This document shows, one piece after another, positions 24,001-27,000 of a stretch of 47,303 nucleotides of DNA. This DNA comes from a virus (lineage: Duplodnaviria > Heunggongvirae > Uroviricota > Caudoviricetes). Position 1 is the stretch's first letter; the number at the start of each line of letters is the position of its first letter. The stretch covers positions 1 through 47,303 of the IMG/VR virus record IMGVR_UViG_2728369105_000001. One strand, given 5' to 3'. The position numbers are program-made.

Positions 24001-27000
24001 CTGGTTCAGCGTCCATTACTTTTTGGGCAACCTGATCGCGCAGGTCATCAATCACGCTTTGCACGCGTGATACCGCAACCGGCGTAAGTGCACAGTCGCG
24101 CTCAAGAATGTCCGGAAGTGTTTCAAGTACCATGACGACGGCTTTCGCCATCATTGAAAATTCACGTGCGACGTCTTCGGCGGGGATAAGTTGCTTGGTA
24201 TCTACTTCAAATTTCAACCGCTCGTTTTCTGCTTTCCAGTGAGCGAGGCGATCAGGGGGTGTCATCTCTTCAAGATTCGATGAGGAAACCGTCGGGATCA
24301 TTAATTCTGTCAGAATATCGGTGACAAGATACAACTTAAGTTTGCTGTTGCTTCCCTGGGCGGGACTGACATTTTTTAGCCTGGTAGCGACGGTCTGCCG
24401 GTGTACGCCAGTAATCCCGGCAAGCTGGTTGATATTGAGTTTTAAAGTAGCGATTTCCTGGTCCATGATGGTGAACACTTTTTATACGATTCGACATCAT
24501 TGAAAATCCGACATCTGGAAAATCAATAACCTGTGCACATGATGATGATGACTATGAAAAATGAAAACTAGCCGTTTTCCGCGAGTCCGCCGCCCCGTGG
24601 TAGGTCACCCCAACGGGAGGACCCTTAAATGATAATGGATATCACTTGCATGATTGTTACAGGCATTATCTGGGTTTCATCAGCGCGCATTATCTGTATG
24701 TGTAACGTTTGGTGCTGTATACCCTCTATCGAGGATGAAGCATTACCAGTCCATTAAGAGATGATTTGTCGATTAGTAGTTATCGAAGTATAAAAAAACC
24801 GCCCATAATGGCGGTCTTGGTCCTGCTGAAATCGAATGGAGGAGATTAACTCAAACCAACATCATTCAGTTTCTTGTTCATCCATTTTCTTCGCCATTTC
24901 AACAAAGTTAATAGATGGGAGGTTAACTGACTCAAGTCCTGCGTTCAAAAGTACCGTACTAACGAAAGCGCGAAGATATGGATAAGCGATTGCTGGAGCA
25001 TTAACCTTATGGAAACTGCCTTTCCAAAAATGTTCATCCAAAGGCTCATCGGATTCGAAGATGAAATCATGAACAAGCTTAAATTTAAAACCTCTCTCTG
25101 AGGTCAATAAAAAATCAAACTTAACACAAAATTCTGCATCGCTTTCGGGTACTAAGTGACTGGAATACGTGAAATTTATGCGATTGACAAGCTCATTTTC
25201 TTCTTGAGTTTTAGTAATGAAGAGCTCATCTACATTGTTATCTTTCAGCTGGAGATGCATGACTTACGCCGCCACTAAATGAGACAGCGCCCCTTGAGGC
25301 GCTGAGTTAGTATTTTTTGGGAAAAAGCTCAAGAGCTCATCATCCATTCTGAAAACTTCACATCGCCAGACCTGACCTTCGTCTCGCACAGTGTTTTCGT
25401 CAACACTACCTTCCATGTAGTAGGTTAGCTCTTGTGCAATTTCTGCCGTTTCTGAGGATTTGTCCATCACACCACATTTCTCAAGCGCAGACAAAAACTC
25501 CTCACGTGGCATCGTATCGATTAGAGCTAAAGCTGCTTCTAACCACGCTTTTTTATTCATATTGACCCCTTAGTGACAATATCATGCTGTATGGCACATC
25601 GTGTCGGTTCCTTCAGACACATGATTCTGCAATTTGGTATCCGAGCTCGCAATTGACCACGCCCAGAAGTGATAGCTTCTCTTCGTACCAACGCGTCAAG
25701 GTTAAGGTTCTCAAGAGCAAAATTCGCTACAAAGCAATCATTTTGTAAAGCTGTAGCATCTCGATAACCTTCTTGTTTCATCCGTTGTGCCAGACTGTCC
25801 CTGATCGTGTTGAAAATCTTCAAATCTTCAATCTCATCCAGATCAAGGTGAGTCTCAGTTCGTATCAATGATTTTAGCACAGCATAACTATGGTATTTGC
25901 GCTTACGTGCTCTTCCATCCCAAGAACGGAACCGAGCCCATTGTTCTGCATTAGCGATAGGATCTGTAAATCCATCGATGAAAAAGTATGCGCCGCTGCC
26001 TAACCAATCGTTATCTTCTTTACTAATTCTGTAGTTGCTAACCACAATCTCTTCTGCAGAACTAAGACTCGTTCCATGATATCCAGTCCACTCGGTGTAA
26101 GATTGAGAGTCTTCTTGTGAGTTCAAGGGATATCCGCCTTCCCAAATCGATTTGCCTGAAGAGCTTCTCGCGTGACGAGAATCTTACCTTTAAGCTAATC
26201 ACCAAAACAAGGTTTAGGTATAACTCTGTGGATAACCGTGACAGCGATAGCACTTTTTGTATAAAAAAAAACAAAAAATCGTTTTGTCAATGGTTGACTG
26301 TAGATTTAATCTTTTAATCATCTTCTGTCACCCAGAAAACTGTTTGATTGAGCAAAAAAAACAAAAAAATAACATTTAAAAACAATAGGTTGCAATTAAA
26401 ATACAAATTAATAAGCCAAAATCTCTTGTAAATAGTAAACAGAAGTGTGTTTTATTATAATTACAGTTCCAGAACAAACCTAATATATTGTTTAATAATA
26501 AATTATTAGCCTATCCACAATCTCGATATCGCTGAGTGTTACGGCGATATGGGTAGCTATGCTAAGTACATCTACCTAAGCCAATTTCTGCGCATCAGCC
26601 TACGCATTCACCACAATTTGACATTATCACCGGCACTCTTAGGATGCCTGCATTAATGCCTTAACTGGCCTGTTCTGCACCGGTATCAAACAGCGCCAGC
26701 GCTTCGGTCGCTTCCTGGATGGCCTTACGGGTCTTCGAGACAATCTCGCTTTCCGTGAAAACACGATCGAAAGAGTCTGCGAATAGCTCAGACTTCAGAT
26801 AGCTGTCGCCTACCCAGTCAATGGCCAGCTTGGCCGCTGCGGTGTCGTAGTTAACTTTCTTGATGATATCCAGGCGGATTTGCTCGGATGCGGTGATTTC
26901 TGACATGTCTTACCTCTGTGCGATGTGGGGAGCATTATCGAAGTCACTAACCAAGTGACTTCTGTAATGCCATTAAAAAAGCCACCCTAAAGTGACTTTT

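Follow-up and report, generated by a model that had tools for sequence, protein, structure and literature searches.

The AT-rich gap upstream of a CmdTAC-like operon in a lambdoid prophage: a non-coding mosaic of three pieces with a candidate leader promoter and a broken copy of a tRNA-shaped phage RNA element

In the window analysed here, i.e. the whole stretch of 47,303 nt of record IMGVR_UViG_2728369105_000001 on which all coordinates are given, a lambdoid prophage with its late genes on the minus strand carries a three-gene operon resembling the toxin-antitoxin-chaperone system CmdTAC (also called PD-T4-9), and we studied the AT-rich gap of 534 bp that separates its toxin gene from the 81-aa DUF2560 gene upstream of it. 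The gap does not code for protein, and comparison with related phages, plasmids and copies of the module shows it to be a mosaic of three unrelated pieces of different ancestry. We consider it probable, though by no means secure, that this mosaic is a junction at a hotspot for cargo (moron) genes, situated between the lysis cassette and the cos/terminase region of a Klebsiella-type lambdoid prophage, in which the leader of the operon would possess a weak promoter of its own and the AT-rich DNA would modulate it. The gap, its pieces and its direct neighbours are the following.

26661-26906, minus strand: 81-aa DUF2560 gene
26127-26660: the gap studied, 534 bp, from the DUF2560 stop codon to the TTG start of the toxin gene
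26620-26660, minus strand: hairpin directly after the DUF2560 stop, common to relatives that lack the operon (-15.1 kcal/mol, z = -3.2)
26530-26620, minus strand: truncated copy of a tRNA-shaped element; the hairpin is followed here by GTGAATGCGTAGGCTGATGCGC
~26318-26529: AT-rich core, GC content about 25%, holding the distal A8CA6 run (26354-26368)
26354-26368, plus strand: distal copy of AAAAAAAACAAAAAA, within the AT-rich core
26127-26317, minus strand: leader of the CmdTAC-like module, inherited together with its three genes and holding the proximal A9CA6 run (26263-26278)
26264-26278, plus strand: proximal copy of AAAAAAAACAAAAAA, within the leader
24862-26126, minus strand: the CmdTAC/PD-T4-9-like three-gene operon

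The distal quarter of the gap (26530-26660) is common to phages and plasmids without the operon. In related phages of Klebsiella and Escherichia, the lysis genes and the DUF2560 gene are approximately 90-93% identical to those of the window. This similarity extends to 26620-26622, which is where the homology to L003, L004 and L005 stops, and beyond it each of these phages has different genes ahead of its terminase. A stretch of 70 bp (26590-26659) recurs in Escherichia coli prophages that lack the operon, 26585-26621 in E. coli plasmids of about 93 kb and 26530-26616 in a Salmonella plasmid (L014). At the other end, copies of the module in a Leclercia genome, an Enterobacter chengduensis genome and metagenomic contigs (L006, L012, L141, L142) match the window from 26311 or 26317 down to 24880 with approximately 80% identity, the homology among them ending 18 nt short of the stop codon of the chaperone gene. 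At least five different phage backbones harbour these copies, each time with the lysis cassette on one side and the terminase on the other, and the backbones themselves differ in endolysin (GH19, GH24 or GH108) and in terminase (Terminase_4 with HNH, Nu1/GpA, Terminase_2/6 or DUF1441). In every one of them a leader of 185-190 bp is kept with the genes, at about the same 80% identity as the coding sequence. In a more distant version of the module (L139, 70% identity), blastn recovers no more of the leader than its final 20 bp, the remainder being alignable by eye.

The middle piece, the AT-rich core, is found neither in the module copies of Leclercia and Enterobacter nor in the relatives without the operon, and those IMG/VR and metagenome contigs that contain a 23-mer or a 24-mer from it all have DUF2560 and the operon on either side. 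On these matches the core is a filler restricted to the Klebsiella-type lineage, always lying between DUF2560 and the operon. Homology of the core to the region upstream of the Leclercia copy was considered and rejected, the best local alignment being a 12-mer with a score of 19 versus a shuffle mean of 18. In terms of the proposed history, the tail (26530-26660) would be phage backbone, the core a filler of this lineage and the leader the part that travels with the three genes.

The first-pass annotation of this DNA had taken the entire gap for a promoter region acquired upon insertion of the module. The operon and the proximal 185-190 bp can indeed be regarded as acquired cargo, but the gap is not a single region, since 26530-26660 is found in phages and plasmids devoid of the operon and the middle 210 bp do not accompany the module elsewhere. 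The same annotation held that occurrence of the sequence in operon-less relatives would speak against acquisition, and such occurrence was found for 26530-26660 only. It also proposed that a comparison with operon-less relatives be used to define the insertion boundaries; this places the end of the shared backbone at about 26620 and the beginning of the module at 26311/26317. The mobile CmdTAC-like module is hereby bounded to approximately 1.43-1.44 kb (26311/26317 to 24880), comprising a leader of 185-190 bp and three genes, and shown to land repeatedly between lysis and terminase genes. This is useful for the cloning and annotation of prophage defence cargo and cautions against reading each AT-rich spacer as a single acquired promoter.

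That the gap has no convincing open reading frame (ORF) and is very AT-rich, as annotated at first pass, was borne out. ORFs overlapping it span only 30-70 aa and have junk-like translations, and RefSeq annotates no feature in the gap of the copy in E. coli EC31, accession NZ_CP060987, whose prophage carries the region with 99% identity. Because homopolymer lengths differ among 99%-identical copies, any ORF crossing the tracts would be frameshifted, so that no reading frame extends across the runs; a 35-aa ORF (26214-26321) was discarded, as it is not conserved and crosses a run of variable length. Over the gap as a whole the GC content is 34.8%, and in 26312-26530 it falls to 24.7%, compared to 48.4% for the window, and 26211-26510 ranks second lowest in GC among the 300-bp stretches of the window. 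A sensitive blastn search of the whole gap against GenBank phages gave no homologue, and the corresponding search of E. coli genomes returned one near-identical prophage and matches to the 70-bp tail only. Neither tandem nor ToxI-like repeats were found in the gap, only short two-copy families, and ARAGORN called no tRNA in it.

These data also bear on the idea that the core encodes an unrecognised small RNA or micro-protein, for instance an antisense RNA or a toxin regulator of type-I or type-III kind. Several ORFs of 30-40 aa and four sigma-70-like sites on the plus strand of the gap could be cited in its favour. We nevertheless regard it as very improbable: the number of sites is close to the shuffle expectation of 2.1 +/- 1.3, Rfam searched at E <= 10 yields nothing but noise (best 13-18 bits versus thresholds of 55-88), repeats of the ToxI kind are lacking, the tract indels among near-identical copies frameshift those ORFs that cross the runs, and the module can do without the core, which none of its other copies contains. 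A plus-strand TTGACA-16-TAGGAT (26618-26645) was examined as an antisense promoter and rejected, its hexamers not being conserved in relatives that share the stretch.

The repeated A-tract sequence pointed out in the first-pass annotation is real: AAAAAAAACAAAAAA has exactly two matches in the window (26264-26278 and 26354-26368; 0.01 expected), a number reached in none of 100 dinucleotide-preserving shuffles. The flanks of both copies are dissimilar, which makes them two low-complexity runs and not copies of a longer repeat unit. Among copies of approximately 99% identity (the window, L009 and L011) the proximal run reads, on the minus strand, T6GT9 in the window and T6GT8 or T7GT8 in the others, and for the distal run the window has T7GT8, L009 T8GT6 and L011 T7GT6. 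In more distant relatives the position of the proximal run is T-rich but different, with T6GTTAT5G in Enterobacter and no run in Leclercia. By this comparison the A8CA6 runs are slippage-prone homopolymer tracts and do not constitute a specific motif.

Length differences among 99%-identical copies, together with the location of the proximal run directly downstream of a perfect TTGACA (26290-26285), might suggest a phase-variation switch in which slippage alters the promoter spacing and turns the operon on or off. This explanation we scarcely credit. The TTGACA is kept in three leader variants and absent in L139, and it was rejected as a -35 box since no usable -10 box lies 16-19 nt from it in any of the length variants, a TATACA being located at 20-21 nt. 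The run is moreover absent in Leclercia and different in Enterobacter, and the distal run lies more than 170 nt upstream of the conserved candidate promoter described below.

With respect to DNA shape, AA/TT dinucleotides in 26200-26500 have a single dominant period of 10.25 bp (power 2.4 versus 0.8 for the next peak). No other 300-bp stretch of the window has so high a peak, which is attained in 2% of run-preserving shuffles. Intrinsic curvature is thus plausible in this lineage, as far as dinucleotide phasing indicates, and fits the curved DNA proposed at first pass; the phasing is however lineage-specific, the repeat is not conserved and the tracts vary in length. The two long runs, 90 bp or about 8.6 helical turns apart, are out of phase with each other. 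As the phasing is absent in relatives, curvature would be a property of the lineage and not a conserved property of the module. Horizontally acquired genes can have AT-rich, curved upstream regions that are targeted by H-NS, a phenomenon known as xenogeneic silencing. The gap resembles such targets in the low GC content of its core (about 25% versus 48% for the window), its long A/T tracts and the strongest AA/TT periodicity of the window, and differs from them in that the phasing is not conserved in relatives, the long runs are out of phase and the binding of H-NS is here a prediction from composition.

The leader is the piece in which start signals are expected, and the following candidates were located.

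26181-26210, minus strand: candidate sigma-70 promoter, with -35 box TTGTTT (26210-26205), an 18-nt spacer and -10 box TAAGAT (26186-26181)
26143-26137 and 26126-26124, minus strand: Shine-Dalgarno-like GGGAAGG and TTG start codon of the toxin gene
26227-26235, minus strand: perfect DnaA-box 9-mer TTATCCACA, upstream of the candidate -35 box

When promoter-like pairs were scored with a rough position matrix of our own making, TTGTKT-18-TAASAT turned out to be the only pair present at the same position in all four leader variants, the 70%-identity L139 included; it ends 54-56 nt before the TTG start. The start site itself is well conserved, with GGGAAGGCGGATATCC(C/T)TTG, comprising the ribosome-binding site and the TTG, being invariant in all close homologues and recognisable in Brenneria, and RefSeq selects the same TTG for the toxin. 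Most likely, TTGTTT-18-TAAGAT is a weak sigma-70 promoter that belongs to the module itself and from which a transcript would start near 26174, and the AT-rich, helically phased DNA upstream of it probably modulates this promoter through curvature or H-NS-type proteins. With a promoter of its own, the module could be expressed in the lysogen even though the late operon around it is off, as late transcription is in lambdoid prophages. The search for the native promoter of the module is thereby narrowed to one conserved candidate.

Several points weigh against a module-borne promoter under the influence of the AT-rich DNA. The candidate is weak, matching the consensus hexamers at 3/6 and 4/6 positions with an 18-nt spacer; it falls below the threshold of a consensus scan of the gap, which found no sigma-70 promoter on the operon strand, and it was singled out with the aforementioned matrix. 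Within the AT-rich core, higher-scoring but non-conserved promoter candidates exist. For the gap as a whole, AA/TT phasing is reached by 9.5% of run-preserving shuffles, and the gaps upstream of the module in relatives are AT-rich (34-41% GC) but not phased. Finally, the origin of the AT-rich core is not accounted for by this explanation.

The empty consensus scan, in combination with the patching of the gap from unrelated pieces, would also agree with a gap that is a recombination scar and nothing more, leaving an operon without its own promoter to be transcribed by read-through from the late and lysis genes or from a promoter further upstream. No terminator was found on the operon strand inside the gap or anywhere from DUF2560 to the toxin gene, so that Q-modified late transcription would read through into the module during lytic growth. 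A mere scar is in our opinion unlikely. A toxin-antitoxin module for defence must be expressed in the lysogen, in which late transcription is off, and a leader of 185-190 bp with a positionally conserved promoter-like pair is retained at approximately 80% identity in every backbone. Moreover, the homologous cmdTAC operon functions from its native upstream region, since cmdTAC on a low-copy plasmid under its native promoter suffices for defence (PMC11618068). In that published work the native-promoter fragment was used in constructs without being mapped (PMC11618068).

Two further motifs of the leader were considered. The DnaA-box 9-mer has two matches in the window against 0.34 expected and is kept in the leaders of the window, L006/L142 and L141, and missing in L139. 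A leader hairpin TTCTCG-N5-CGAGAA (26165-26181, 6 bp) was discarded as a regulatory stem because it is not kept in Leclercia, Enterobacter and L139, and the leader RNA as a whole folds worse than shuffled sequences.

The tail of the gap starts with the hairpin after the DUF2560 stop and continues with a copy of a tRNA-shaped element of which only the first part is present. Retained are the 5' strand of its closing helix (26616-26609), the D-like hairpin with the core 22-mer (26611-26590) and the variable arm. The D-like hairpin GCGC-AGGCUGAU-GCGC lies at 26590-26605 and contains one G-U pair, and the core 22-mer is intact except for one C-to-T change that is allowed by the Y of the search pattern. 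The 3' block with the T-like hairpin has no match anywhere in the window, even with 3 mismatches, and the possibility that this missing half was moved downstream of the operon was therefore dismissed. Accordingly, model R1 of the element scores 33.4 bits on the window copy, with the T-like hairpin skipped, and 50-83 bits on complete copies. Homology with the complete copy on the Salmonella plasmid L014, which has the same variable arm, breaks at 26530. In the related phage L025, the DUF2560 gene is followed by the hairpin, a complete element, and then a terminator and other cargo.

With its T-like hairpin missing, the window copy is a truncated relic and most likely a dead one that marks a recombination joint. 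A tail (26530-26660) that still functions, for example as a signal for processing or stability of the lysis-gene mRNA at its 3' end, and thus serves the upstream genes, appears improbable to us. In its favour, the hairpin after the DUF2560 stop is stable and conserved in several phages, the core 22-mer is intact apart from the allowed change and the variable arm happens to contain a CGCCGUAAC with which the 5' strand of the closing helix can pair; these are outweighed by the loss of the T-like hairpin and the true 3' strand, by the lower model score as compared to complete copies and by the folding of 26530-26620, which is no better than that of shuffles (z = -0.68). Of the two mosaic joints on this side, 26620 falls at the start of the element and 26530 in its interior, which suggests that such shared sequences may serve as crossover points. 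We tentatively put forward, as a possibility that we rate below an even chance, that 26530-26620 is a broken member of an uncatalogued family of functional tRNA-shaped RNAs present in hundreds of enterobacterial phages and phage-plasmids, that these elements are in addition joints at which cargo enters and that the CmdTAC-like module with its filler would have entered by a crossover that destroyed the element.

The family to which this relic belongs is widespread. Exact matches to the core 22-mer (with C or T at one position) are found in more than 120 IMG/VR contigs, a lower bound, in unrelated flanks, and an example of the full-length element matches 242 phage records in GenBank, among which Escherichia (115), Klebsiella (73) and Salmonella (14) phages. 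In 107 of 129 instances a second conserved block is located 27-169 nt downstream of the core motif. A fold anchored on both blocks is cloverleaf-like, with a 9-bp closing helix, AAU, the GCGC-AGGCUGAU-GCGC hairpin, a variable arm and a T-like hairpin GCCGG-AGAUCAGCA-CCGGC that abuts the 3' strand of the closing helix. Complete copies are located at 6110-6208 of L076, 1508-1606 of L138 (phage HK620), 832-956 of L014 and 5255-5377 of L025.

The fold is supported by covariation. In an alignment of 60 sequences based on the core only, 94% of cells pair, compared to 28-54% when the partners are slid; nine pairs have changed on both sides and the covariation score is reached by 0 of 500 shuffles, the counts for an example pair being GC 35, AU 10, UA 10 and CG 2. 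In a model-fitted alignment of 94 matches, double changes are seen in 14 of 18 pairs. The closing helix of the family has them in 6-7 of its 9 pairs. G-U wobbles occur in the late-gene sense only, which argues for an RNA on that strand. Both loops, AGGCUGAU and AGAUCAGCA, are complementary (GCUGAU/AUCAGC), a proposed contact that is beyond the reach of covariation, one of the loops being part of the exact motif by which the sequences were gathered.

An alternative pairing was observed in a subset of copies, in which the 5' strand of the closing helix (11 nt ending at the first base of the core 22-mer) can pair with a segment 50-170 nt upstream. Perfect complementarity over these 11 nt is present in 13% of copies versus 3% of shuffled controls (L019, L023, L024, L031, L040, L055, L133 and others), and two mutually exclusive folds would be available to such copies. 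As a family-wide feature the upstream partner was rejected, being clear in that subset only, and so was a terminator downstream of the element (18 of 100 copies versus 7 of 100 controls).

Compared to tRNA (RF00005), the element has a similar arrangement of a closing helix, a 4-bp hairpin 3 nt further on, a variable middle arm and a 5-bp hairpin directly adjoining the 3' strand of the closing helix. It differs from tRNA in its loops, which are not D- or T-loop-like, and in having neither an anticodon arm nor a CCA end. Other RNAs with which it may be compared are the tRNA-like domain of bacterial Y RNAs and the stable RNAs of phage T4, which are encoded next to tRNA genes. Complete copies of the element match no family of Rfam 15 and elicit no tRNA call from ARAGORN, the PGAP annotation of 140 E. 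coli genomes does not name it, and a literature search by sequence and key words, which did not cover the P1 genome paper, returned nothing relevant.

tRNA genes often adjoin copies of the element and point in the same direction. Phage RCS47 (L137), which is of P1 type, has three tandem copies on the plus strand (1504-1643, 1933-2039 and 2194-2323), the third of a divergent subtype, immediately after the genes for tRNA-Asn and tRNA-Thr. They overlap plp and upl, two ORFs annotated on the opposite strand that may be spurious calls over RNA genes. In HK620 the copy sits between pR'/qut (977-1069) and the late terminator tQ (1658-1684), i.e. inside the short leader RNA whose constitutive synthesis from pR' ends at that terminator; lysogens would in that case express the element. 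A strongly covarying, tRNA-shaped element in many well-studied phages is thus absent from Rfam and RefSeq annotation, and may explain doubtful ORF calls such as plp and upl of P1 as well as some mosaic breakpoints of lambdoid phages. As a regulatory spacer the gap is an ordinary moron junction, and this element is the more interesting by-product of its analysis.

The cargo itself consists of three genes, followed by a terminator.

25557-26126, minus strand: ADP-ribosyltransferase-like toxin, 189 aa, TTG start
25264-25560, minus strand: putative antitoxin, 98 aa
24862-25260, minus strand: SecB-like chaperone, 132 residues
24818-24795, minus strand: intrinsic terminator after the chaperone gene, with a 9-bp stem and a T-run

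PD-T4-9 is identical to CmdTAC, a toxin-antitoxin-chaperone anti-phage system of E. coli ECOR22 described by Vassallo et al. (PMC9519451, PMC11618068), in which the toxin ADP-ribosylates mRNA after a phage capsid protein titrates the chaperone (PMC11618068, PMC9519451). The operon of the window has the same gene order of toxin, antitoxin and SecB-like chaperone. Its chaperone matches the PADLOC model PD-T4-9_C over nearly its full length (2.5e-34, residues 1-129 of 132) and Pfam SecB (3.3e-6). The toxin has only weak similarities, to PADLOC PD-T4-9_A (1.8e-4), to Pfam Exotox-A_cataly (0.013, below the curated cut-off) and, in a sequence search of PDB, to exotoxin A (E 0.02-0.06). The 98-aa protein matches nothing in PADLOC and Pfam, and only its position and size agree with CmdA. 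In contrast to the known system, the toxin represents a divergent branch that is rare, a search of 5.8 billion proteins giving 16 at E <= 1e-5. Judged by these likenesses, the operon is a divergent relative of CmdTAC with a putative role in defence. Known CmdTAC systems have been placed in P2-type hotspots (bioRxiv 10.1101/2024.10.15.618418), unlike the present module, which resides in lambdoid prophages between lysis and terminase genes.

Morons of lambdoid phages are autonomous units of cargo, with a promoter, one or more genes and a terminator, inserted between backbone genes. The concept is reportedly due to Hendrix/Juhala. The module resembles a moron in lying between conserved backbone genes (the lysis cassette and cos/terminase) and being absent from close relatives, in its deviating composition (41.9% GC for the operon genes and 34.8% for the gap, versus 52-58% for the flanks), in the intrinsic terminator downstream and in the non-coding leader that travels with the genes. 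It departs from the type in that its promoter is a prediction, and in the approximately 210 bp of AT-rich DNA and the broken backbone RNA element that lie between the moron proper and the upstream gene.

The surrounding late region of the prophage comprises, in addition to the genes given above, the following features.

28785-29141, minus strand: holin
28243-28782, minus strand: GH108 lysozyme
between the GH108 lysozyme and TolA-C-like lipoprotein genes, minus strand: spanins
27049-27390, minus strand: TolA-C-like lipoprotein
24584-24595, minus strand: cos-like GGGCGGCGGACT
23975-24478, minus strand: DUF1441 small terminase

The accessions of the E. coli EC31 proteins and the best phage matches point to a phage of Klebsiella type. 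The cos-like sequence resembles GGGCGGCGCGCT, the annotated cohesive end of phage LLS. Its position would put cos between the terminator of the operon and the small terminase gene, and hence the operon at the extreme right end of the virion DNA.

Elsewhere in the prophage, the stretch of lowest GC content of the window (41441-42220, 23-28% GC) overlaps a minus-strand ORF of 307 aa (41461-42384), which adjoins a likely integrase (42400-43752) and a tRNA-Arg(cct) gene (43783-43857) and, lying at the attachment-site end of the prophage, probably represents further cargo. In a patch of 42-45% GC, an ORF of 159 aa (29386-29865) on the plus strand, opposite to the late genes, is flanked by the holin gene and by an ORF of 252 aa (29948-30706) that occupies the slot of antiterminator Q in related phages; the 159-aa ORF looks like another moron.

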